Of a stretch of 64,000 nt of DNA, positions 27,251 to 40,798 are shown piece by piece. The stretch is from IMG/VR virus record IMGVR_UViG_3300035208_002115. One strand, 5' to 3'. Below the pieces are notes generated by a model. That model did not search any database. It saw only the letters and a program-made list of their open reading frames with translations, and was not told the origin of the DNA. The translations under genes and the position numbers were made by a program. Numbering within the stretch: the first letter of the stretch is position 1; each line of letters opens with the position of its first letter. Source of the stretch: a virus. Taxonomy: Duplodnaviria > Caudoviricetes.

Positions 27251-28786
27251 ATGTTATCTTTTAAATCTTTTGTTAGAAATAACCTTTTTGAATCTATTGA
27301 TGATAATCAGAACTGGGTATTAAATGTAATATCTGATAAATCTATTGTCAGAACTAAAACCACCAGAGAGAAACTGGAGGGATATTTAGGTAAATTATAC
27401 AATTTCACAGAAGATAATCAAATCATTGATAAAAAAGAATTAACAAAAATACAAAATGATTTAGATAAAATCTATTCATCATATTATTACTCGTTTTCAA
27501 ATAAAGAAACACAGCGTTCAAAATTAGAAGACTTCGCTAAGAAAAGAGGATATTCTTCTTTATATAAAGCAGCATATGAAGAATCAGGTGACCCAGTTTT
27601 AAAGGTTTTAGCGAATTTAAATACATATTCGTTGTCTAATGTGAAATATAATTTAAAAAGAATCGATACAATTAATGATAAATTAACAAAAGATGAAGAA
27701 AAATTTATTACTGATTATTATCCAAATTTATATAAATGGGCATCTTTATATGATAAAATAGAAGAAATACGCACAATATTAAACCCATCAAAAGAACAGA
27801 GGGAAGCTAAAAAGCTACAAGAAATTAAAGGTGTTGTTGACCCAAGAATTAAAAATTCTATTGATGAAATAGCTGAAAATTTCCGACAAGTTATCGAAGA
27901 ACAACAAAATGTTTATTATTTAAAATGTGTTAAAGATTTACAAAAATATTTTGTTGATGGACATTTTGAAAGAAATTTAGTTTCAAAAGACGACCAAATA
28001 TATGTTGCTGAATTAATTTATCGTTTATCATTTATGTTAAATAAATCTTCATCTCAATACACATTTATTGATGATTATGAAGAAAAAATATTAAAACAAT
28101 CATACGATGATAGTGTTGAAACAATTACAAAATTTCAAATTAAAATGTATGATAAACTTGGCGGTTTCATGCAAGAAATTGGTAAAAATTTCACAACCAG
28201 CGTTCAGGGTAAAACATATAAAAATAATGATATTTATTTTGATATAGAGGGTGGTGGTAATTTTGCAATAAGAAATCAGATTGTTTATAAAGTAAGTAAT
28301 CGTGGAACAAATTTTTATACATACCCCACAAATTTCATGTTTGCAAACTTACCAAATGGAGAAAGAGTTAAAGACCCAAGTGAATATACAGTTAAAAAAG
28401 CCTTTAATGATTATTATAATAAAACTAATGAAAGTGTTAAATACATAGATACAATAAATGAATTTATGACAATGTTGGATTTATTTCTTAAATCCAAGGA
28501 AAACAGGAAATGGCTTGTAACTGATGATGTCAAAATATATGTTCGTAAATCTAAAAGGTATCAAAATAAACAAATGTATGATTGTTTAGATTTGGCTTCT
28601 GTTGAAGTCGGTGACACTGGTAAAGGACTATTTACTGAACTTTTCGAAACTATATTAGATAAATACAAAAATAAAAATATTTTTGTTGAATCAATATTAG
28701 AAAAAAGATTTTACAATTTTATAAAAAAATATGGGTTTGAACCATATGGCAATTCTCCAGATAGTTTAATTAAGATTGTTGAATAA
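27251..28786 (+). CDS. putative internal head protein with C-terminal GNAT-like domain
   Basis: MLSFKSFV..LFE leader; LDLASVEV..TGKGLFT..F; FYNFIKKYGF. Confidence 0.5.
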   Translation: MLSFKSFVRNNLFESIDDNQNWVLNVISDKSIVRTKTTREKLEGYLGKLYNFTEDNQIIDKKELTKIQNDLDKIYSSYYYSFSNKETQRSKLEDFAKKRGYSSLYKAAYEESGDPVLKVLANLNTYSLSNVKYNLKRIDTINDKLTKDEEKFITDYYPNLYKWASLYDKIEEIRTILNPSKEQREAKKLQEIKGVVDPRIKNSIDEIAENFRQVIEEQQNVYYLKCVKDLQKYFVDGHFERNLVSKDDQIYVAELIYRLSFMLNKSSSQYTFIDDYEEKILKQSYDDSVETITKFQIKMYDKLGGFMQEIGKNFTTSVQGKTYKNNDIYFDIEGGGNFAIRNQIVYKVSNRGTNFYTYPTNFMFANLPNGERVKDPSEYTVKKAFNDYYNKTNESVKYIDTINEFMTMLDLFLKSKENRKWLVTDDVKIYVRKSKRYQNKQMYDCLDLASVEVGDTGKGLFTELFETILDKYKNKNIFVESILEKRFYNFIKKYGFEPYGNSPDSLIKIVE

Positions 28787-30047
28787 ATATATTATCTAAA
28801 CTTTTTAAAATGTTTTCATTATATTTTATCCTGATTAATTTAACATTATTATTTAAACAAAAATTATTTTTTATATTATCATGTCTTTTAATAATTTTTA
28901 AATTTTTTTCACCACCAAAGTATTCTATTGGTTTAAAGTGTTGTAAACCATCATATTCAATACACATATTATACTTTGGTAAATAAAAATCAAATCTCAA
29001 TTTATTTTCATTTTTACAATTATCGAAACAGTATTGTTGTGTGAATTTGATGTTATTTTTTTCAAGGTAAAGTCTTATTTTCTGTTCACCTTTTGATGAT
29101 TTACACGCAGGACAACCAACACCTCTAAGATGGGCGCAAGCTATTTGCTCGAAAAAACCATGTTTCGGACAAATTATTCTTATTTTTTTTCTACTATGTT
29201 CATAATTAACTAAACTGTAATCGTAAACTTTACCATGTTTATTTTCAGATATTTTAATAAATTTTTCTGTATCGTATGTTCTTAATTCGTGATAACATTT
29301 TTGACATCCCTTCCCATTAATATGTGAACCAGCATTTTGTTCGAATTCACCATGTATTGGACATATTATTTTTATTTTTTCTTTACAATTATTATATTGA
29401 GTTAATGAATAATCATATTTATTATTATGAATTTCTTTCACTTTTATAATATATTCTTCATTAGTGTAATTATATTTACCAGAACATTTTGAACAACCAA
29501 TACCAAGTAAATGAGATGTTGGTTCTTGTTCGAATTCACCATGTACAGGACATATAATAATAATTTTTTTATGTGCTGTAATATAATTAACTTTTGAATA
29601 ATCATATTTATTATTATGTATTATTTTTGCTTTCTCTATAAAATCTTTAATTGTATACAAAATATTATTTGCACATTTTGGACATCCAGTTTTATTATTT
29701 AAATGATTATCTGGTCTCGCTTCAAATTCCCCATGTTCAGGACAAATTATTTTTACTTTAGTTTTATTATTTACGTATTGAGTTAATGAATAATCATATT
29801 TATTGTTATGAACCATATTTGCTTTTGTAATAAATTCATCTTTAGTAGAATTTTTAACACCAGCACACTTTGGACACCCCTGTCCTCTTAAATGATTTGC
29901 AGGTTCTTGTTCAAATTCACCGTGTTTATCACAAATAATAACAACTTTTGTTCTGGAATTGATATAATTAATTAAAGAATAATCATACCTCATATTATGT
30001 TTACTGTTCGCCTTTTCAATAAAACGTATTTTTTTAATATCTATCAT
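28770..30047 (-). CDS. homing-endonuclease-like protein: repeated CPxHG zinc modules plus a C-terminal PD-(D/E)xK (Vsr/DUF559-like) nuclease
   Basis: Five YDYS...IC(P/D)xHG(E/F)FE...GCxxC units; SKGE, FDFYL, IEYDGLQH. Confidence 0.85.
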   Translation of the reverse strand: MIDIKKIRFIEKANSKHNMRYDYSLINYINSRTKVVIICDKHGEFEQEPANHLRGQGCPKCAGVKNSTKDEFITKANMVHNNKYDYSLTQYVNNKTKVKIICPEHGEFEARPDNHLNNKTGCPKCANNILYTIKDFIEKAKIIHNNKYDYSKVNYITAHKKIIIICPVHGEFEQEPTSHLLGIGCSKCSGKYNYTNEEYIIKVKEIHNNKYDYSLTQYNNCKEKIKIICPIHGEFEQNAGSHINGKGCQKCYHELRTYDTEKFIKISENKHGKVYDYSLVNYEHSRKKIRIICPKHGFFEQIACAHLRGVGCPACKSSKGEQKIRLYLEKNNIKFTQQYCFDNCKNENKLRFDFYLPKYNMCIEYDGLQHFKPIEYFGGEKNLKIIKRHDNIKNNFCLNNNVKLIRIKYNENILKSLDNIFIQQS

Positions 30048-30140: not shown

Positions 30141-31622
30141 ATGCTTGTAGATTTCGAATATCGTTCTAATTCTCTAATAATATCATTTATTAACGATAAG
30201 GGTAATATTAAATTAAAATACATCCCTTGGAAAGACCCTAAGAAATTCGTTACCTGTTCCCACCAAGATAAAAATAAACATGAACAGTATATCACTTGGG
30301 ATGGCCGTAGTGTTAAAGAAATAGACACTAATTATCCAAATCGTTATTCTATCTATGAATATTTAGATAGCTTACCAGAAGATGAAAAGAAAACTATATT
30401 TGAATACCAAGAACCGAATATTTTCTTTGTTGATATTGAGAATGAAATTTTAGAAAAACGTCCAGCACCACATTTAGCTGAAGGTGCAATACAAACAATA
30501 TCTATTGTATTTAATAATCAAGTTCTGGTTATGGGTCTTCAGGATTTATCACAAACAGACCAAGACGGTATTAAAACCGATATCGAAAATTATTTTTCTA
30601 AATATAATCTTAAAATAGAATTCAAATATAAAAGATATACTTCTGAAAAACACATGATTTTCGATTTCTTTAAAATGACACAACAGATGTCGGTGATAAC
30701 TGGGTGGAATTTTGTTAATTATGACTGGGTATATTTAGTTAAAAGGGCGAGAAAATTATACATAAAACCCGAAATATCATCTTTTACTGGAAATTTAAGG
30801 TCTTCATATGAAGATGATAATTATGCAGAATTACCAGCTCATAGAATTATTGTAGATTACATGGAATTGTATGAAAAATGGGATACTGCTGTTAAAGTTA
30901 AAGAATCAAGTGCATTAGATTTTGTGGCCGAGAAGTTACTTAAAATGAAAAAAGTTAATTATGAAGGTAACTTAAAAATACTTTATCGTGATGACTTTAA
31001 AAAATTCGTTTTCTATAATGCGGTTGACTCCTTGTTGGTTCAAAAGATTCATGAAAAGATGAAATATATTGATGTGTTATATGGTATTTCAACGTTATCA
31101 AAAATTAAAGCGTTGGATGCCTTTTCAACATTAGCTGTTACCGAAGGTATTTTACGTTCAAAATTACGAGATAAAAAAAATATTATCTTATGTAAATTAA
31201 ATGACCCAGATGGATATATAGACCCAAATATAATTGAAACCACTTCTAAGATGGTGAAAGGTGGATGGGTAAAAAGCCCATTTAGAGGCATGAAAACGTG
31301 GACTTGTTGTTATGACTTCGCTTCACTTTACCCAACAACTATGCGCCAATTTAACATATCGGCTGATTCATATAAAGGCCAAATTGACAAAAGTGGTCAA
31401 TATTCATTATTTAATGGTCTTAAAATACCAATAGAAGATAATGATATTATAACTTTAAATGGTGCTGTATTCAAAAATGAAATTGGTGTTGTTAATGAAG
31501 TTATGGGTGATATTTATACTGAAAGAAAGAAACATAAAAAGCTTATGATGAAAGCTAATGAAGAAATGAATAAATTAAAACATGAATTAGAACAGCTTGA
31601 ACATGAAGTAAGTAATTTATAA
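30141..31622 (+). CDS. family B DNA polymerase, N-terminal half (exonuclease plus motif A) of a split gp43
   Basis: ExoI DIE, ExoII GWNFVNYD, ExoIII YNAVD, motif A DFASLYP; ends in the first fingers helix without motifs B and C. Confidence 0.9.
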   Translation: MLVDFEYRSNSLIISFINDKGNIKLKYIPWKDPKKFVTCSHQDKNKHEQYITWDGRSVKEIDTNYPNRYSIYEYLDSLPEDEKKTIFEYQEPNIFFVDIENEILEKRPAPHLAEGAIQTISIVFNNQVLVMGLQDLSQTDQDGIKTDIENYFSKYNLKIEFKYKRYTSEKHMIFDFFKMTQQMSVITGWNFVNYDWVYLVKRARKLYIKPEISSFTGNLRSSYEDDNYAELPAHRIIVDYMELYEKWDTAVKVKESSALDFVAEKLLKMKKVNYEGNLKILYRDDFKKFVFYNAVDSLLVQKIHEKMKYIDVLYGISTLSKIKALDAFSTLAVTEGILRSKLRDKKNIILCKLNDPDGYIDPNIIETTSKMVKGGWVKSPFRGMKTWTCCYDFASLYPTTMRQFNISADSYKGQIDKSGQYSLFNGLKIPIEDNDIITLNGAVFKNEIGVVNEVMGDIYTERKKHKKLMMKANEEMNKLKHELEQLEHEVSNL

Positions 31623-31628
31623 TTAATT

Positions 31629-31907
31629 ATGTTTTTTAAAAATAAAAGAATAAAAAAGAATAAAATTCTTTCGACACCATTGATAAGTGTTATATCAAAT
31701 CTAAGTGTTATGAATCAGTCATTGAATAGTGGGAATACAAACACACCAATACGAACATCACAATCATATACACCCTCTTATATATCTGGTTCAACTATGA
31801 CTATTGAAGGTAATTGGGAAATGGAACGTGAAAGGAAAAGAATTGAAAGAAAAGGTAAGATAGAAGAATTATTCCCAGAATTAATATCTTTGTTAGATAA
31901 TGACTAA
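31629..31907 (+). CDS. small tagged protein
   Basis: ERKGKIEELF near the C-terminus. Confidence 0.7.
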   Translation: MFFKNKRIKKNKILSTPLISVISNLSVMNQSLNSGNTNTPIRTSQSYTPSYISGSTMTIEGNWEMERERKRIERKGKIEELFPELISLLDND

Positions 31908-32148
31908 AAAAATAAAGAACTTGAAATTAACATCCAAGGTGGTTTCAGTTAAAACAAGATGTATTAATGCTACAATAACACCTGAAATTATAACTGATTT
32001 ACAATCATTGGTTTTTAAATCGGAATGGATTCATGAAGATTTATTACATATTTTACGAGAAGAAGAACGCCAAAGAAAAAGGAAAGAACGTCAAGAAAAA
32101 TTAAAAAATATATTTGATGATGAAAACGATGGTATTTGGGACGTTTGA
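31900..32148 (+). CDS. small tagged protein with gp23-like fragment
   Basis: LTSKVVSVKTRCINATITPEIITDL plus ERQEKLKNIF. Confidence 0.7.
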   Translation: MTKKIKNLKLTSKVVSVKTRCINATITPEIITDLQSLVFKSEWIHEDLLHILREEERQRKRKERQEKLKNIFDDENDGIWDV

Positions 32149-32302
32149 TTTAGTGTCATCACCATCACATAGTAATAGTAGAATATATCCGAAAGATGTG
32201 TTTTTGAAGCATATAGAAGAATTAAATAGGCGCATTAATAGAGAGCAACGTAAAGAAAAAATTATTCAAATATTTGGCGATGAATTATTCGAAGGATGTT
32301 AA
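32114..32302 (+). CDS. small tagged protein with prohead-protease-like fragments
   Basis: TFDLVSSPS and NSRIYPKDVFLKHIEEL plus QRKEKIIQIF. Confidence 0.72.
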   Translation: MMMKTMVFGTFDLVSSPSHSNSRIYPKDVFLKHIEELNRRINREQRKEKIIQIFGDELFEGC

Positions 32303-32450
32303 AGATGAAGATATAATTTTAAGTGGTGATTATGTAACTTATCAAGACCATAAATTTGTTGTAGACAATGTTAATTATACACCCCGTCAGAGAAAAATTT
32401 TGATAAGAAAAATGAAGTTGAATAAAATTTTTGGTTATGAATTTAAATGA
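32280..32450 (+). CDS. small tagged protein (56 aa, not in ORF track)
   Basis: MNYSKDV...IRKMKLNKIFGYEFK. Confidence 0.65.
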   Translation: MNYSKDVKDEDIILSGDYVTYQDHKFVVDNVNYTPRQRKILIRKMKLNKIFGYEFK

Positions 32451-32601
32451 AAGTAAAATCGAGTTGTTAATGGACTTGCAGCGATACTGTGGTTTCGAGG
32501 TGAATTTTATATTAAATCAACTTGGGTTAGTTTCACCAGAAGAAAAACGCTTTGAACGTAAAGAAAAACTTAAAGAAATATTTGGAAATGATTTTCAATA
32601 A
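32437..32601 (+). CDS. small tagged protein (54 aa, not in ORF track)
   Basis: MNLNESKIELLMDLQRYCGF...ERKEKLKEIFGNDFQ. Confidence 0.68.
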   Translation: MNLNESKIELLMDLQRYCGFEVNFILNQLGLVSPEEKRFERKEKLKEIFGNDFQ

Positions 32602-32788
32602 AAAGGAATATGTTACAAGAGAGGAATACGAAAATTTATATGAACGACTTGAACAATGTATATCATATTCTGAACATCTTGCAAAAGCAATTAATGTGTT
32701 ATATAAATCATTTGAAAGTATATTACCGCCAGAAAGACTTAAAATATTAAGAAAATCAAAAATAGAAGAAATATTTGATGCCGAATAG
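32588..32788 (+). CDS. small tagged protein with scaffold-repeat-like fragment
   Basis: LEQCISYSEHLAKAI plus LRKSKIEEIF. Confidence 0.7.
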   Translation: MIFNKKEYVTREEYENLYERLEQCISYSEHLAKAINVLYKSFESILPPERLKILRKSKIEEIFDAE

Positions 32789-33032
32789 TGGAATAACAAT
32801 ATGGGGCAATAACACACTCACTCAAATAAGTGATTTATCGGATTATGGTTGTAATATGGAAACATATTTGACTGATATATTGACTGAAGAATTATCAAAA
32901 GAAATTGATAAACAAATTATTGAAACCCTGATGAACGACCCCATATGGAAAGAAGAACGAGCAAGGATAATATTACGAGAAGAAAGAAATAAAAAAATTC
33001 AAGAAATCTTTGGTGATGATTTTACTGTGTAA
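32778..33032 (+). CDS. small tagged protein with sheath-like and gp23-like fragments
   Basis: GITIWGNNTL; LTDILTEELSKEIDKQII; ERNKKIQEIF. Confidence 0.72.
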   Translation: MPNSGITIWGNNTLTQISDLSDYGCNMETYLTDILTEELSKEIDKQIIETLMNDPIWKEERARIILREERNKKIQEIFGDDFTV

Positions 33033-33036
33033 TTTT

Positions 33037-33504
33037 TTATTTAAATTTGTTAAATAATTTCTTAATAAGTGGTAAGTCATACCATTTTTCAACACCGTTT
33101 GGTGCTTCAGCATCATAATGTTTTCCGTTATAATATATCCACACATGATTTATCTCATCATTAACTTTATTAATATTAACTGGTGGATAACCCCAGTAAT
33201 CGAGCATGTTTTTACCCCAAATCCCATATTCGGTTTCAATAATATTATCCCAATTTTCTTTAGCGAATTCGGGGTCTCTATAATTAAAAAACATATCACC
33301 ACTTAATTCGAAAAGTGTTTTTGTATAACCACCCATTTTATTGATAATTTCACCTGCGAAATCATCACACATTCCATTATTTATATCCCAATTTGTACAA
33401 CTATTTTCTTCTCGGTATTCTTTAGATGTTTGTTTTATAAGTTTGGTTATATCAGGTGAAACATTTTCATTTAAAAAATCATTGAAATTGGTTTTAATAA
33501 ACAT
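33037..33504 (-). CDS. putative internal head protein with Cys-His-Asp (transglutaminase/papain-like) triad
   Basis: NFNDFLNE leader; NGMCDDFA, HVWI, YDAE. Confidence 0.55.
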   Translation of the reverse strand: MFIKTNFNDFLNENVSPDITKLIKQTSKEYREENSCTNWDINNGMCDDFAGEIINKMGGYTKTLFELSGDMFFNYRDPEFAKENWDNIIETEYGIWGKNMLDYWGYPPVNINKVNDEINHVWIYYNGKHYDAEAPNGVEKWYDLPLIKKLFNKFK

Positions 33505-33563
33505 ATCTCTTAAATATTTTTTATTATATATTAAAATTTTGAAATTATAATTAACTTTGTAAT

Positions 33564-33758
33564 ATGAATATATTAGAGCAACAATCTTTAGGTCGTGTAA
33601 TAAGAACCCAGAAAAAAATAATAATTAATAGTGTATATGGTGGTTCATCTATGAAATACCCAGTATCTATTACAATGGTGTTTCCACGCAAAAGCTATAC
33701 GAGAAAACTAAAATTAGAAAAAATATTTCCAGAGTTTAAAAATGAAAAACACAAATAG
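33564..33758 (+). CDS. small tagged protein with helicase motif VI-like and PolB motif B-like fragments
   Basis: QSLGRVIR; KIIINSVYG; TRKLKLEKIF. Confidence 0.72.
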   Translation: MNILEQQSLGRVIRTQKKIIINSVYGGSSMKYPVSITMVFPRKSYTRKLKLEKIFPEFKNEKHK

Positions 33759-33891
33759 CAATAAAATAGTTGAATTATATTTAGAATTTAAACAAAAACA
33801 TCCAGAATATTTTAATTATTTAATGGGATTAATTAAACGGAATGAACGTAGTGATAAGTTAAAAGAAATATTTGATGATAAATTAAAATAA
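33742..33891 (+). CDS. small tagged protein (49 aa, not in ORF track)
   Basis: MKNTNS...ERSDKLKEIFDDKLK. Confidence 0.62.
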   Translation: MKNTNSNKIVELYLEFKQKHPEYFNYLMGLIKRNERSDKLKEIFDDKLK

Positions 33892-33919
33892 AAAAAGGAG
33901 AACAAATGTTCTCCTTTTT
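33892..33919. terminator. bidirectional terminator between convergent units
   Basis: AAAAAGGAGAACA-AA-TGTTCTCCTTTTT. Confidence 0.85.
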
Positions 33920-33939
33920 CTTATTTTGAATATTAAAGA

Positions 33940-35577
33940 TTAGATTAATACACCATTAGTGTCAGTTACGTGGATAGCCATGAATTGTTTTTCTGGGAAG
34001 AAACCAATATCAGCGATAGCATAACGGCTACGAATCATCATTCTTGGAGCCCAGGTTGCTTCAGAGATTAAGCTGATGCTTTGAGCCATCAAGTAAGGAA
34101 GGAAGATAAGACCGGGTTGGTCTACTGAGTTCTTACGTCCTAAGAAGACACGGTTGTCATTCCATGTTTGATAAGGGTCAACATAGATAGCTATTTGTCC
34201 AAGGTTACCCATTGGATAAAGCTGACCATTAGTGTTCAATTTTGACATTGCAGGTGGGTTAAGGGTGTAAGTTGATACATCCTGTAAAACAGAAGCAATA
34301 TTACCATTAGTAACAAGGTACTGAGCTGGGCCAACCCTACCATCAGTAGCGATGAAGCTAGATGCATTGTTGATTTTAGCAACAAGTTTTCTCTGAACTG
34401 AGTGAGTAGTTTCACCACCAGGAGCAACACCACCAAGATAAGCAGTAACATCGAAGTCAAACTTAGCTGTTGGTACAGTAACTCTGGTTCTTGCCAATTC
34501 AGCAAGTTCAGTAATTTTAGCAACAATCTGTTTAGAAATAGTCTGAGTTAACTCATTGATTAAAACAGATTCTAATTTCTGAACGATGTCCATACCAGTA
34601 GATGCTTTTATATCTTCAATCTGAGTACGTTTTAAAGCACTTGTGATTTCGATATCACCAACCTGTACGGTTTTGGTGCTTACATCTGGGCCAATTACAC
34701 CGGGATATGTATGTTCGTCTGTGTCACGGTTCATACCTGTGTTTAAATTCCAACCAGCAACGAAACCCGGAATGTGGTCTTCCATTAATGATACTAAGTC
34801 AACATTAGCTTCAGTCAATCCTGTTAATGCTGATAATGCATCAGCAACAACAACATCCCAACCAAATGTATTTTTAGTAGCATCGAAAATAGGTTCAACA
34901 CCACCTAATTGAGGAACTGCAACCTGACGGAATGTACGAAACATTGGAAGTCCGTCAACTTTTGAAAATCCAAGAAATTCAAGGATGCCAGTTTTTGTAG
35001 CAGGTTCAACATCATATGTAGCTGTGTTAGCAGCATAGTTGTAGAACATACGAGCAGTCATACCACCAATTCTTTCGATGATAGCACCTGCTGGACGAGC
35101 AGCCATTTGACCTCTAAGAGCAGCAGCTAAAATAGCAGTTTCAGTAGAATCATTTCCAGCAACTTTGAAAACCAAAGGTTTATCAAGTGATTCGTCATTA
35201 TTATTATCGTATTTGAAATCTACGAACAATAAATCAATTTTAGGTGAAGCAGTAGGTTTAACAGCTATTAAATCAAGACCAATAGTCTGAGCTGCGATTT
35301 TCATAGAAACAGGAAGTAAATTCTGTCCAATATCACCAGAACCATCAGTTCCACCACCCCATACCTGACCGGGTACGTTAGATGGCTGTGGACTTACAAT
35401 AGCACCCATACCATTTAAGTTACCAAGTGTTGAGTAACCAACGTTTTCATTCATCTGATGCATTTCTGCATATTCAGAAAGCCATGCTCTTTTGTCAGGG
35501 TCTTTAATACCAAGTTCTTCTAAAACTGGTAACCATTTTTTTTCAGCTTTCGCTATATCAACATTATAATTTAACAT
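33940..35577 (-). CDS. major capsid protein (T4 gp23-like)
   Basis: KKWLPVLE N-terminus, AQTIGLDLIAVKP, IYVDPY, FLPY, PRMMIRSRYA; ATG at 35577 lies downstream of the late motif. Confidence 0.93.
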   Translation of the reverse strand: MLNYNVDIAKAEKKWLPVLEELGIKDPDKRAWLSEYAEMHQMNENVGYSTLGNLNGMGAIVSPQPSNVPGQVWGGGTDGSGDIGQNLLPVSMKIAAQTIGLDLIAVKPTASPKIDLLFVDFKYDNNNDESLDKPLVFKVAGNDSTETAILAAALRGQMAARPAGAIIERIGGMTARMFYNYAANTATYDVEPATKTGILEFLGFSKVDGLPMFRTFRQVAVPQLGGVEPIFDATKNTFGWDVVVADALSALTGLTEANVDLVSLMEDHIPGFVAGWNLNTGMNRDTDEHTYPGVIGPDVSTKTVQVGDIEITSALKRTQIEDIKASTGMDIVQKLESVLINELTQTISKQIVAKITELAELARTRVTVPTAKFDFDVTAYLGGVAPGGETTHSVQRKLVAKINNASSFIATDGRVGPAQYLVTNGNIASVLQDVSTYTLNPPAMSKLNTNGQLYPMGNLGQIAIYVDPYQTWNDNRVFLGRKNSVDQPGLIFLPYLMAQSISLISEATWAPRMMIRSRYAIADIGFFPEKQFMAIHVTDTNGVLI

Positions 35578-35653
35578 AATATTTTTAATTTTTTTTTTGT
35601 CTTTTGTAGTCTTATATATTATCGCTAAAAAGCGACTTTTTTCCATATTTAGA

Positions 35654-38059
35654 CTATTTCAAGTTTTTAAACACTGAGATGTATCGGTTGACAGCATCTT
35701 CAGTCAATTTCTCGTTATCCACGAACTTTACGTTTTCGTTCATGACTTTTTTTTCATTTACACTAACTAACCTTTCTATTCCTCTACTATTCCAGAAACT
35801 TTCGAATTTTGCATCTGAGTTCAGATTGTAAAGTTTAGACTGTGCGATAATGCTATTTTGTGTTTTAGCATCCAATTGTTCCCAAACAGGTTTTAAATCG
35901 CTTGGTATTTTTTCAACTAATACTTCTGCAAAAGATTTTTTGCTTTCAGTAAGTGCATCACGAATAATTCTTAAAACATCAGCTTCAGAAGTGTATTTGC
36001 TTTCGTTCATAGCAACTTTTATTTTTTCCTTATCTTCTGATGAAAGAGCTATCCAATCAGCTTTTCTTGCTTCACTCAAAAACAATAAAAAGTGAGGCTG
36101 TTCTTCTTCTGAAGCTTTACGTTTTTTACTTTCAGAAATTAGACTTTTAATATTATTTAATAAATCCTCTTGGTCTTTAATTACTTTATCACCAATGAAT
36201 TTTACTCTTGATTCTTGTACTTCTTGTACTTCTTCAACGTCATCCATTTTTACAACTACGATACCGTTTTGGACATTTGTGGCAATAACTTCACCAGTTT
36301 TGTCGTCATCGACTTTAACTATCATACCCGGTAATATCATACCTGCTACGTTTTCACCATCTTGAACCTGTGTTTGTGCTTGTGGGTCTTGAACCTGTGT
36401 TTGTGCTTGTGGTTCTTGAACCTGTGGTTCTTCCTGAGTCTGTACATCAGTTTCAGTGTCAGTTGTAATGTTAAGTTGTCCAGCATCACCAGTAGCATCA
36501 GCAGCAGCATCACCAGCAACCAAAGGCTGTTCTGTAATACCATCTTCTACTTGTACGGGTTCTTCGCTTGTTTCATCTTCATAATAAGAATCAACGTTGT
36601 CAACTTTCATATTACCCATTCTCTGTTCAGGTGAATCAACATTTTCGTTTATTTTTCCACCTTTAATTTGTTCAGAAATATATTTTTGATATTCAATATT
36701 TTTATCTAAAGATTCAGCAATATAATTTGTGTATGCCTGAGTATCAGTTAAATTTTCAGCAATATATTCAGCATATGCAATTGAATTATCAAGATGTTCA
36801 GCTACGTATTCGCTATAACGAATAGAGTTATCAACGTTTTCAGCAAGATATTCTGAGTATGCGATTGAGTTATCAACGTTTTCAGCAAGATATTCTGAGT
36901 ATGCGATTGAGTTATCAACGTTTTCAGCAAGATATTCTGAATATTCAATATTTTTATCAAGATTTTCAGCAAGATATTCTGAATATACAATAGCATTGTC
37001 AAGGTTTTCACCTAAATAATCAGCAAATTGAATGGTTTTATCAACATGTTCAGCAATATATTCTGAGAAATCAATACTATTACTCAATGTTTCAGCTATA
37101 TACTGGCTATAATTAATACTATCATCTAACTTTTCAGCTAAGTATTTAGAATAATCAATAGATTTGTTAAGATTTTCAGCTAAATAATCATTATGTTTAA
37201 CAAGATTATCAGTTGTAGTTTTTAACGTTTTGTTTTCGTTTACAAGAATTTGAATATTTTCAGCTAAATAATCTAAATAACTTGCCACTTTTGTGAAAGA
37301 TGAATTTAGATTAGCATAATACTCAGATAATTCTTCAACTTTTTCGGGAGATTCCTTACCTTCTTTGATGGTTTTTTCAAGTTCTTCTTTTATTTTACTC
37401 ATTTCCCCAGTTAAATAGGTAGAGTATTCTTCCATCTGTGTTTTTGTTACAGCATCATTATTGTTCATAGTAAATAATTCATTTATTTTTGTTTCATCGT
37501 CAACGGGAAAAATTCTAAAATTTGCATTTTCATTTGTATACCCTAACGATTCATTTAAAGACATTTTTGCAGAAGCAAATCCCGGGTCAGCAACGGCATC
37601 ATAAGTAAAAAGTTTTTTAATTGTAACTTCACCATTAGATTCGGTCACACCTGCTGCACGAGATGATACAAAAAGAGGGCATTCATCCTCGACTAAAGCT
37701 CTGGCTTCTTTACCCCATTGTGTGGTCAATAATCTTATTGAACCTTCTATAATATTTTTTTCTTGATTAAATGTAGCACTCTCAACTGTGTGTGAGACTC
37801 TGCGTAAAGACGTATCGAAAACATCAGGATGGTCGAATTCACCATATATAACTCCTAATTGTTTTTTTCTTGCCAATAATTCATTAAGATGTGGTAGAAA
37901 TTTGTCTGCGGTATAGATTCTTTCATTACGATTTTTTATATTAAATTCAGTAAATGTTCCAGATAATATAAATTTTTTAGTTGAAAGCGAAGCTTGTTCG
38001 TTAATCATTAATCCACTATTACAATGTTCCACAATCAAAATAGGTTTGAGTTTTTCCAT
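35654..38059 (-). CDS. prohead protease (gp21-like) fused to a scaffold/core domain
   Basis: NRNERIY, GEFDHP, VSSRAAG, YDAVADPG, then 14-aa coiled repeats and an acidic linker. Confidence 0.9.
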   Translation of the reverse strand: MEKLKPILIVEHCNSGLMINEQASLSTKKFILSGTFTEFNIKNRNERIYTADKFLPHLNELLARKKQLGVIYGEFDHPDVFDTSLRRVSHTVESATFNQEKNIIEGSIRLLTTQWGKEARALVEDECPLFVSSRAAGVTESNGEVTIKKLFTYDAVADPGFASAKMSLNESLGYTNENANFRIFPVDDETKINELFTMNNNDAVTKTQMEEYSTYLTGEMSKIKEELEKTIKEGKESPEKVEELSEYYANLNSSFTKVASYLDYLAENIQILVNENKTLKTTTDNLVKHNDYLAENLNKSIDYSKYLAEKLDDSINYSQYIAETLSNSIDFSEYIAEHVDKTIQFADYLGENLDNAIVYSEYLAENLDKNIEYSEYLAENVDNSIAYSEYLAENVDNSIAYSEYLAENVDNSIRYSEYVAEHLDNSIAYAEYIAENLTDTQAYTNYIAESLDKNIEYQKYISEQIKGGKINENVDSPEQRMGNMKVDNVDSYYEDETSEEPVQVEDGITEQPLVAGDAAADATGDAGQLNITTDTETDVQTQEEPQVQEPQAQTQVQDPQAQTQVQDGENVAGMILPGMIVKVDDDKTGEVIATNVQNGIVVVKMDDVEEVQEVQESRVKFIGDKVIKDQEDLLNNIKSLISESKKRKASEEEQPHFLLFLSEARKADWIALSSEDKEKIKVAMNESKYTSEADVLRIIRDALTESKKSFAEVLVEKIPSDLKPVWEQLDAKTQNSIIAQSKLYNLNSDAKFESFWNSRGIERLVSVNEKKVMNENVKFVDNEKLTEDAVNRYISVFKNLK
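36700..37280 (-). repeat. 42-bp (14-aa) tandem repeats YSEYLAENVDNSIA in the scaffold region; boundaries approximate
   Basis: More than 10 degenerate copies; near-identical at DNA level around 36826-36940. Confidence 0.88.
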
Positions 38060-40462: not shown

Positions 40463-40798
40463 TTATTGACTATTTTTTAAAGAATTAATTGGAAACCAAT
40501 ATTCTTTTTTAAAAGGTATTTTTATATTACCGTTTATTATCAATTCTTTAGAAGTATTTTTAATATCATTCACATTGATTACTTCATATGTAAATGGTAA
40601 ATTTGCATCACCATTTATTTTAACTTCACCAAGACTATCATCCCATTGAACATCTTCATGATATTTTCTCATCAACTCATGAACTTGTTCTTTAGCTTCT
40701 TCTCTGGTTATACCATCAACTGGTATAATGAATTTTTTATGATTAAATTCAGTATGTTTTTTTTTAAATCTTTTATCAATAAAACTAAATAATCCCAT
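40463..40798 (-). CDS. mini paralogue of the portal clip segment
   Basis: KKFIIPVDGITREEAKEQVHELMRKYHEDVQWDDSLGEVKING vs portal KKFIIPTDGLTRAQAEQQIFQLMSEYHEDVQWDDRLGTVKING. Confidence 0.85.
   Translation of the reverse strand: MGLFSFIDKRFKKKHTEFNHKKFIIPVDGITREEAKEQVHELMRKYHEDVQWDDSLGEVKINGDANLPFTYEVINVNDIKNTSKELIINGNIKIPFKKEYWFPINSLKNSQ

Follow-up and report, generated by a model that had tools for sequence, protein, structure and literature searches.

Several described systems turn on short parts of phage core proteins or on short terminal peptides shared by many phage proteins. The capsid protein, the prohead protease, the polymerase and the helicase are known immune cues, and the prohead protease is a cue of the cyclic oligonucleotide-based antiphage signalling system (CBASS) (PMC13728456). 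Lit and CapRel read short motifs. In the T4 gp23 Gol / e14 Lit/EF-Tu system the trigger Gol is a 29-residue stretch within gp23 (PMC3014915). Avs sensors envelop whole folds, and Avs7 buries 3,700 Å2 of capsid protein, mainly the A-domain (bioRxiv 10.64898/2026.01.04.697583). Here we analyse a 64-kb window of phage DNA, which corresponds to genome positions 509370-573369 of a 675,678-bp record with 27% GC. At window positions 31629-33891 it carries an array of nine plus-strand open reading frames (ORFs) of 49-92 amino acids (aa), each with the C-terminal motif R-x-x-K-[IL]-x-x-[IL]-F, hereafter the tag.

The comparison with the described systems shows likeness to several of them. As with Gol, a short and highly conserved gp23 stretch, in T4 acting alone as signal, is concerned. 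Several mini-genes of this genome, some tagged and some untagged, hold the capsid region that corresponds to Gol (genome 223918, 223568 and 200182); in T4, Gol lies within the capsid protein and sets off defence, whereas here the stretch is a free gene with a tag. The gp23 pieces of ORF2 and ORF7 lie outside the Gol region, that of ORF7 at about T4 residues 276-308. DSAD1, the DSR2 inhibitor, is a small phage protein that binds a structural-protein sensor and prevents its activation, and it may serve as a functional model for a decoy; it is a single dedicated inhibitor, allosteric on tube binding, which carries no shared tag and is not described as a piece of the trigger (PMC10981675). Acb3 (PF25187) is an inhibitor of the cGAS/DncV-like nucleotidyltransferases (CD-NTases) of CBASS. 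One tagged gene here is a member of this family; it lies outside the array, and none of the nine ORFs is Acb3. The T4 capsid-targeting sequence is likewise a short terminal peptide common to many unrelated small proteins, but it is N-terminal, acidic-aromatic and found on late genes, while the tag is C-terminal, basic-hydrophobic and apparently under host-type promoters. The nine ORFs are outside every family checked for membership, and no paper on a design of core motif plus tag was found in the largely open-access literature searched.

The tag, a nine-residue amphipathic helix, is appended C-terminally to about 175 unrelated proteins, and selection acts on it at the protein level. A minority of the tagged proteins are 45-95-aa peptides with a signature stretch of gp23, gp21, scaffold or DNA polymerase B (PolB). 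Some of their bodies are duplicated from the phage's own genes, some are stitched from two motifs, and none can fold as the parent protein. These tagged core-motif peptides are kept by purifying selection. With a capsid protein that shares 62% identity with its counterpart in the 735-kb phage LR756501 and 50-52% with those of three 634-642-kb phages, the phage is a megaphage of their group, called Mahaphage.

A C-terminal tag selected as protein

All nine ORFs of the array end in the tag, as the initial annotation had reported, with 3-10 residues between the tag and the stop. The tag is a genome-wide feature and not a property of the array. In the genome under study (G000) the motif is found 180 times within 16 aa of a C-terminus, compared with 1-7 times per 5-aa bin further inward, which is far above chance. 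ATG-started frames that end in the tag number 180 (about 175 of 1,111 plausible genes, ~16%) in this genome and 124 in a complete relative (G001), and 96 of the 106 G001 homologues of tagged genes retain it. The Arg of the tag is encoded by all six Arg codons, i.e. from both codon boxes, Lys is present at +3 in 129/139 C-terminal cases when the search pattern leaves +3 free, and the pooled ratio of nonsynonymous to synonymous substitution rates (dN/dS) of the tag is 0.18. Thus, the tag is a signal of the protein. Tag variants with Ser or Ala at +3 are found in distant phages, and the tag is present in LR745206; it was not seen in a 50-kb sample of LR756501, nor in PTm1. The tag may also resemble the last helix of sigma-70 factors.

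With the tag masked, clear Pfam matches among 173 tagged bodies are found to Gp23 (two), PolB, Acb3, an ABC ATPase, an ankyrin protein and one domain of unknown function. Fragment carriers are a minority of the tagged genes. Hallmark matches are observed in 6/65 small tagged genes versus 5/326 comparison genes (p 0.004), and in 5/38 versus 3/272 in G001; tagged mini-ORFs account for 3/4 of the non-capsid Gp23 matches in the whole genome. The Acb3 homologue (PF25187, E 2e-25, above the curated cut-off) carries the tag behind its domain in G000, G001 and the further relative G002, and is untagged in another relative, G003. This appended tag, together with five array bodies of real homology (below), bears out the modular build of motif plus tag that had been proposed. 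A tagged 245-aa gene in L330 was considered as Acb3 and rejected, the likeness being by eye only and Pfam finding nothing. The tag or one of its variants is also found on the ABC ATPase, on the ankyrin protein and on a protein with a receiver-like domain, and the G001 homologue of the ABC ATPase lacks the tag. Because so many genes are tagged, mostly with non-core bodies, and because untagged core pieces exist, the tag and the core-motif fragment are two overlapping features and not one closed system.

The tag core shows the clamp-binding pattern of PCNA-interacting-peptide type (PIP-like), a terminal hydrophobic-x-x-hydrophobic-hydrophobic, which it has in common with the T4-like clamp-binding motif LDFLF (PMC6212786). 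In the tag, but not in LDFLF, this core follows a fixed Arg and a fixed Lys and is interspersed with charged residues. The C-terminus of the phage polymerase carries another, aromatic motif, and no tag is found on the C-termini of the replication proteins checked (both polymerase halves, clamp loader, helicases and UvsX). A PCNA-like sliding clamp is encoded directly after the large terminase gene; it is shown by its fold (predicted local distance difference test score 87, Foldseek E 2e-9), while the Pfam gp45 models and PHROGs missed it. This clamp was tried as reader of the tag by co-folding with ORF7 residues 48-84, which gave no answer and is evidence neither way.

Core-motif peptides of the array and their sources

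The initial annotation saw a resemblance to hallmark motifs of phage proteins in at least five of the nine bodies. Since single-sequence hidden Markov models of the fragments give modest scores (9-11 bits, with the shuffle 99th percentile at 8.6), profiles of orthologs with the tag masked were needed; these were searched against 2,327 phage proteins, with column shuffles as control. Five bodies match their predicted sources above chance, the best profile match of ORF2, ORF3, ORF6, ORF7 and ORF8 being gp23, gp21, scaffold, gp23 and gp43, respectively (Table 1).

The two gp23 pieces are homologous to adjacent segments of the Gp23 family (PF07068), where ORF7 scores 23.7 bits and ORF2 16.2 bits, both below the curated cut-off of 24.4 and over 35-40 of 376 profile positions. 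The assignment of ORF2 to a gp23 segment is confirmed (12.1 bits, 0/150 shuffles as high; Pfam Gp23 positions 135-171, E 0.0074). For ORF7 the capsid piece stands: its profile reaches gp23 with 19.9 bits (0/150 shuffles; Pfam Gp23 E 3.9e-5), masked ORF7 lands on gp23 genes in 50,697 phage records, and the family profile finds T4 gp24 in the PDB (E 1.2e-4). The proposed tail-sheath start of this ORF is unproven, gp18 being absent from the best profile matches. The predicted structure of ORF7 consists of two helices only (residues 26-52 and 55-78). ORF6 was correctly read as a copy of the own scaffold repeat, with 18.0 bits (0/150 shuffles; 20.6 bits for the G001 ortholog) and 76% DNA identity to the own scaffold gene over 50 nucleotides (nt) (E 6e-4).

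ORF3 and ORF8 had each been read as a fusion of two motifs. For ORF3 (initially placed at 32114) the match to the gp21 protease is found with 18.6 bits (0/150 shuffles), and its motifs are invariant in 4 orthologs. The second, reversed motif is weak: PHROG207 is matched in two stretches with E 0.0095, and the orthologs match profile positions 158-181 with E 0.065. The 36-residue body has the N- and C-terminal protease motifs swapped and contains no complete protease domain (~150-200 aa), and a PDB search with the ORF3 profile gave chance matches only. ORF8 is the weakest of the five. Its PolB motif B holds (gp43, 10.7 bits, 2/150 shuffles as high, 0/150 against hallmark proteins only); in a tblastn search of the 50,697 records with its masked ortholog, all 30 matches listed are cyanophage-type and nearly all are annotated as DNA polymerase. 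The helicase motif VI part is weaker, with UvsW as second match at 7.4 bits, and Q-x-x-G-R-x-x-R is invariant in 4 orthologs. ORF5 was tried as a portal C-terminal piece, and its profiles did not beat the shuffles (15/100 and 11/100). In distant phages (L333, L336, L337, L338 and L339) a tagged 53-60-aa gene that follows a gp23-helix mini-gene has a portal-C-terminus-like motif and scores on the ORF5 profile, its portal link likewise not being above shuffles. A search of the ESM Atlas gave no usable match for ORF4, and all leads for ORF3 were below 0.9.

Further copies of core motifs are found elsewhere in the genome. A tagged scaffold-repeat copy at genome 415016 shares 87.5% of its DNA sequence with the own scaffold gene along 64 nt and thus results from a recent duplication; a tagged scaffold copy in G001 has three repeats. 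In a second row of five tagged mini-ORFs, those at genome 223918 and 223568 cover overlapping parts of the Gol-equivalent capsid region, the former with 63% identity to the own capsid over 27 aa and with its T4 Gol correspondence given by alignment. Because of such copies, at least some pieces are derived from the phage's own genes. One ORF of the second row weakly resembles the tail tube protein gp19 (9.2 bits). A tagged ORF with PolB motif A is found at genome 586527. Two untagged pieces are also found: one covers residues 212-260 of the own portal (67% over 49 aa; Pfam Portal_T4 E 4.3e-4), and the other, a Gol-region piece at genome 200182, has an ortholog in G001.

The checks on synteny and selection that the initial annotation had suggested both favour conservation. 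Synteny of the array extends to at least seven relatives, among which members have been gained, lost or reordered: six are found in G001, two in G002, eight in L098-L100 and five, reordered, in L101-L102, and it is also present in L103 and a Logan contig. At the equivalent site G003 has a single gene with a doubled gp23 helix. The pooled bodies, compared with the closest ortholog, show proportions of synonymous and nonsynonymous differences of 0.46 and 0.25 and a dN/dS of ~0.43 (p 2e-10), values that are rough because synonymous sites are near saturation. The invariant residues are concentrated in the borrowed motifs. Besides its own cluster, a tag-free ORF7 profile returned, from 1.84 billion proteins, 25 proteins that are 46-178 aa long and contain this gp23 helix, most of them tag-ended, and no full-length capsid protein; these relatives are counted as clusters at 50% identity, and P0012 and P0017 were discarded from this search as repetitive false matches. 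On metagenome contigs, gp23-helix mini-genes are likewise often found beside other tagged genes, and one is present in LR745206.

Table 1. Features of the array, its surroundings and related genes (window positions unless stated otherwise)
Feature	Position	Strand	Remarks
Split PolB, exonuclease + motif A half	30141..31622	+	equivalent placement in G001, G002, G003, L098, L101
ORF1, 92 aa, Ser/Thr-rich body, no source found	31629..31907	+	tag 31848-31874; orthologs in 4 other lineages
ORF2, 82 aa, gp23 strand-plus-helix piece, charged helix	31900..32148	+	tag 32089-32115
ORF3, 61 aa, a pair of signature motifs of the gp21 prohead protease in swapped order, remainder of the enzyme absent	32117..32302	+	tag 32249-32275
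ORF4, 56 aa, conserved body, no source matched	32280..32450	+	tag 32406-32432; 3 orthologous lineages
ORF5, 54 aa, body of unproven source	32437..32601	+	tag 32557-32583
ORF6, 66 aa, one copy of 14-residue scaffold repeat	32588..32788	+	tag 32750-32776
ORF7, 84 aa, gp23/gp24 long-helix piece + second helix	32778..33032	+	tag 32985-33011
Untagged 155-aa gene, capsid-targeting-like N-terminus, TATATA late-type motif upstream	33037..33504	-	splits the row; absent from G001 array
TAnnTTTG box just upstream of ORF8	33552..33559	+	from sequence; motif class enriched before tagged operons
ORF8, 64 aa, superfamily 2 (SF2)/UvsW motif VI-like segment fused to PolB motif B	33564..33758	+	tag 33702-33728
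ORF9, 49 aa, no source matched	33742..33891	+	tag 33847-33873
Bidirectional terminator-like hairpin, array / capsid gene boundary	33890..33921		
Own gp23-type major capsid gene	33940..35646	-	
Own prohead protease-scaffold fusion	35654..38059	-	source family of ORF3 and ORF6
Untagged 111-aa mini-gene with conserved portal piece	40463..40798	-	beside portal gene; ortholog in G001
Homing-endonuclease-like genes	28770-30047; L001:11657-15412; L002:5410-9182; L003:11773-13373	- (window gene)	by eye
PolB, motif B onward	genome 659109-660566	-	
Sigma-70-like factor	genome 660703-661554	-	PHROG351 E 4e-57
Acb3 anti-CBASS homologue	genome 636116-636829	-	L317
PCNA-like sliding clamp	genome 30953-31804	+	L280:11953-12804
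Second row of tagged mini-ORFs	genome 223218-224383	+	L290:14218-15383
Tagged scaffold-repeat copy	genome 415016-415249	+	
Tagged scaffold copy in relative	G001:118331-118600	-	
Untagged degenerate pieces, gp23 (two) and prohead protease (one)	genome 200182-200529; genome 368050-368700; G001:202675-203052	+; -; +	
ABC ATPase, tag or variant	genome 145257-145985	+	
Ankyrin protein, tag or variant	genome 110900-111592	-	
Receiver-like domain, tag or variant	genome 579607-579918	-	
Tagged gene after gp23-helix mini-gene, distant phage	L333:2652-2813		

Genomic setting and promoter class

The array is flanked upstream by the exonuclease half of a split PolB and downstream by the convergent capsid gene. 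It starts 6 nt past the stop of the PolB half, and the two are probably co-transcribed. PolB is encoded by two distant genes, and tagged genes directly follow each half; a phage-encoded sigma-70-like factor adjoins the second half. The untagged 155-aa gene within the row is an insert from another gene class. In all close relatives, genes resembling homing endonucleases, as judged by eye, lie beside the PolB-capsid interval or have invaded it.

The leaders of tagged operons differ from those of other genes. A TAnnTTTG box is found upstream in 23/53 tagged operon leaders, versus 86/409 other leaders (p 8e-4) and 1/46 genes of the capsid-targeting type, while the TATATA late motif is present in 39/46 capsid-targeting-type leaders versus 14/53 tagged leaders. 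G001 repeats this pattern. The class with a capsid-targeting-like N-terminus, under the TATATA late motif, comprises ~88 genes genome-wide in a loose pattern count. TAnnTTTG is the -7 element of Bacteroidota housekeeping promoters; a scan for sigma-70 promoters remained at chance level. The promoter pattern, as read from the leaders, points to non-late, host-type promoters for the tagged operons, and hence to non-late expression and away from virion cargo. Together with rare Shine-Dalgarno motifs, the TAnnTTTG box suggests a Bacteroidota host.

A possible decoy function of the tagged peptides and alternative roles

The array is best explained as a part of the non-late accessory gene class of Mahaphage-like megaphages. 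As to its role, we tentatively prefer, at somewhat less than an even chance, non-late counter-defence decoys for host factors that read motifs. The mini-proteins would be made from host-type promoters, ahead of the real head proteins, and would occupy, as decoys or competitors, host factors that read short conserved core-protein motifs, without completing their activation. Candidates are factors that recognise motifs in the manner of Lit/Gol or CapRel, or else chaperones and proteases that defence systems guard. The tag would dock the mini-proteins, as with the tagged Acb3, on one common partner, which would localise them or remove the bound complex. Two known triggers are among the copied parts, the Gol-equivalent capsid region and the prohead protease. 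A decoy role is plausible only for motif-reading systems, because Avs wraps folds whereas Lit and CapRel read short motifs. Avs itself is an unlikely target, since it reads whole folds, no portal or terminase piece is proven among the nine, and ORF7 forms two plain helices. From the proposal that the array baits host sensors, the link to counter-defence is kept, through the tag on the Acb3 homologue. A more specific version would be an evolvable peptide-decoy library of core-proteome signatures, some of them stitched from two proteins, whose shared docking helix, present also on Acb3, leads to a common adaptor that sequesters or destroys bound host sensors; this version we consider unlikely.

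Several points weigh against decoys. Two of the motifs, PolB motif B and helicase motif VI, belong to active sites and are not known as linear epitopes. At 25-60 aa, the bodies lack the folded cores (capsid, portal, terminase, polymerase) that an Avs decoy would present. Most of the 173 tagged bodies match no known family, Acb3 is the sole known anti-defence protein among them, and none of the nine ORFs matches a known anti-defence family in Pfam or PHROG. The bodies of ORF1, ORF4, ORF5 and ORF9 are at chance level (5-27/40 shuffles score as high), and homology search recognises conserved motifs only, which biases what is seen. With dN/dS of 0.2-0.8 versus 0.05-0.11 for core genes, the bodies evolve far faster, and ORF1, ORF4 and ORF9 are near or above 1 in some pairs. 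Fragments without a tag, namely the portal piece at 40463-40798 and the Gol-region piece at genome 200182, exist as well. Finally, from a Gol-like peptide in free form one would expect that it trips Lit and does not block it (PMC3014915), and it could equally be a trigger.

A doubtful but still sizeable alternative is that the tag is the functional unit, as docking, stability or degradation signal of early proteins, and that the fragment bodies are raw material of gene birth with no decoy role. Pieces duplicated from abundant core genes would then have acquired the tag and been retained, as carriers or as weak modulators. The spread of the tag over unrelated bodies, including the ABC ATPase and the ankyrin protein, the recent scaffold duplication, the lower dN/dS of the tag than of the bodies, and several tagged ORFs that are barely more than a charged helix plus tag are consistent with this. 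It fits less well with borrowed motif residues that stay invariant despite saturated synonymous sites, and with a gp23 helix that recurs in ~25 distant clusters, tagged or untagged; moreover, random duplication hardly accounts for ORF3 and ORF8, each of which combines two separate motifs. We regard as unlikely, and slightly more so, that the peptides are dominant-negative: bound to the partners that gp23, gp21, scaffold and polymerase have in assembly or replication, they would poison co-infecting T4-like phages or delay the own head assembly until late. The pieces stem from interaction or core segments of proteins that oligomerise, the promoter class is non-late, and three profiles give slightly better scores with proteins of other T4-like phages than with those of the own clade (ORF2 12.1 versus 8.7 bits, ORF7 19.9 versus 15.8 bits, ORF8 with cyanophage-type gp43 first). 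However, the scores differ only a little and a tree would need longer pieces, further copies are clearly from own genes and would harm the phage itself, and single 25-35-residue helices would be weak poisons of cooperative assemblies.

Very improbable is a virion-loading address in the style of the T4 capsid-targeting sequence or encapsulin cargo peptides, by which the mini-proteins would be packaged and injected. Such addresses are, in general, short terminal peptides on many small unrelated proteins, as is the tag; the late motif, however, goes with the separate N-terminal capsid-targeting-like class, the tagged leaders prefer the host-type box, and some tagged proteins have membrane-like hydrophobic stretches (predicted, by eye). 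Hardly credible at all is decaying gene debris, or a DNA or RNA repeat that mimics a peptide tag, even though AT-rich sequence readily gives frames rich in Lys, Ile and Phe and dN/dS comes close to 1 for some bodies. Across lineages, the frames stay open and both the order of the genes and the motif residues are maintained despite the saturation, and debris is made unlikely by this synteny, by selection and by the distant gp23-helix relatives; with the shuffle tests also against it, this explanation is largely refuted by the selection and codon data.

Overall, the observation of the initial annotation is partly confirmed (tags 9/9, fragments 5/9) and its interpretation partly supported. The mini-genes mislead annotation by short 'capsid' or 'polymerase' matches, and the stitched peptides and the tag are directly testable with short synthetic genes. 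If the peptides are decoys, each mini-gene names a motif that is read by host immunity, and the library would map the motifs read by Bacteroidota immunity. The nine-residue tag on about one sixth of the genes would then be a marker for mining counter-defence genes, with Acb3 already marked. Even without a decoy role, a C-terminal label that is under selection throughout the genome, and peptides stitched from core motifs, represent an undescribed layer of megaphage biology.

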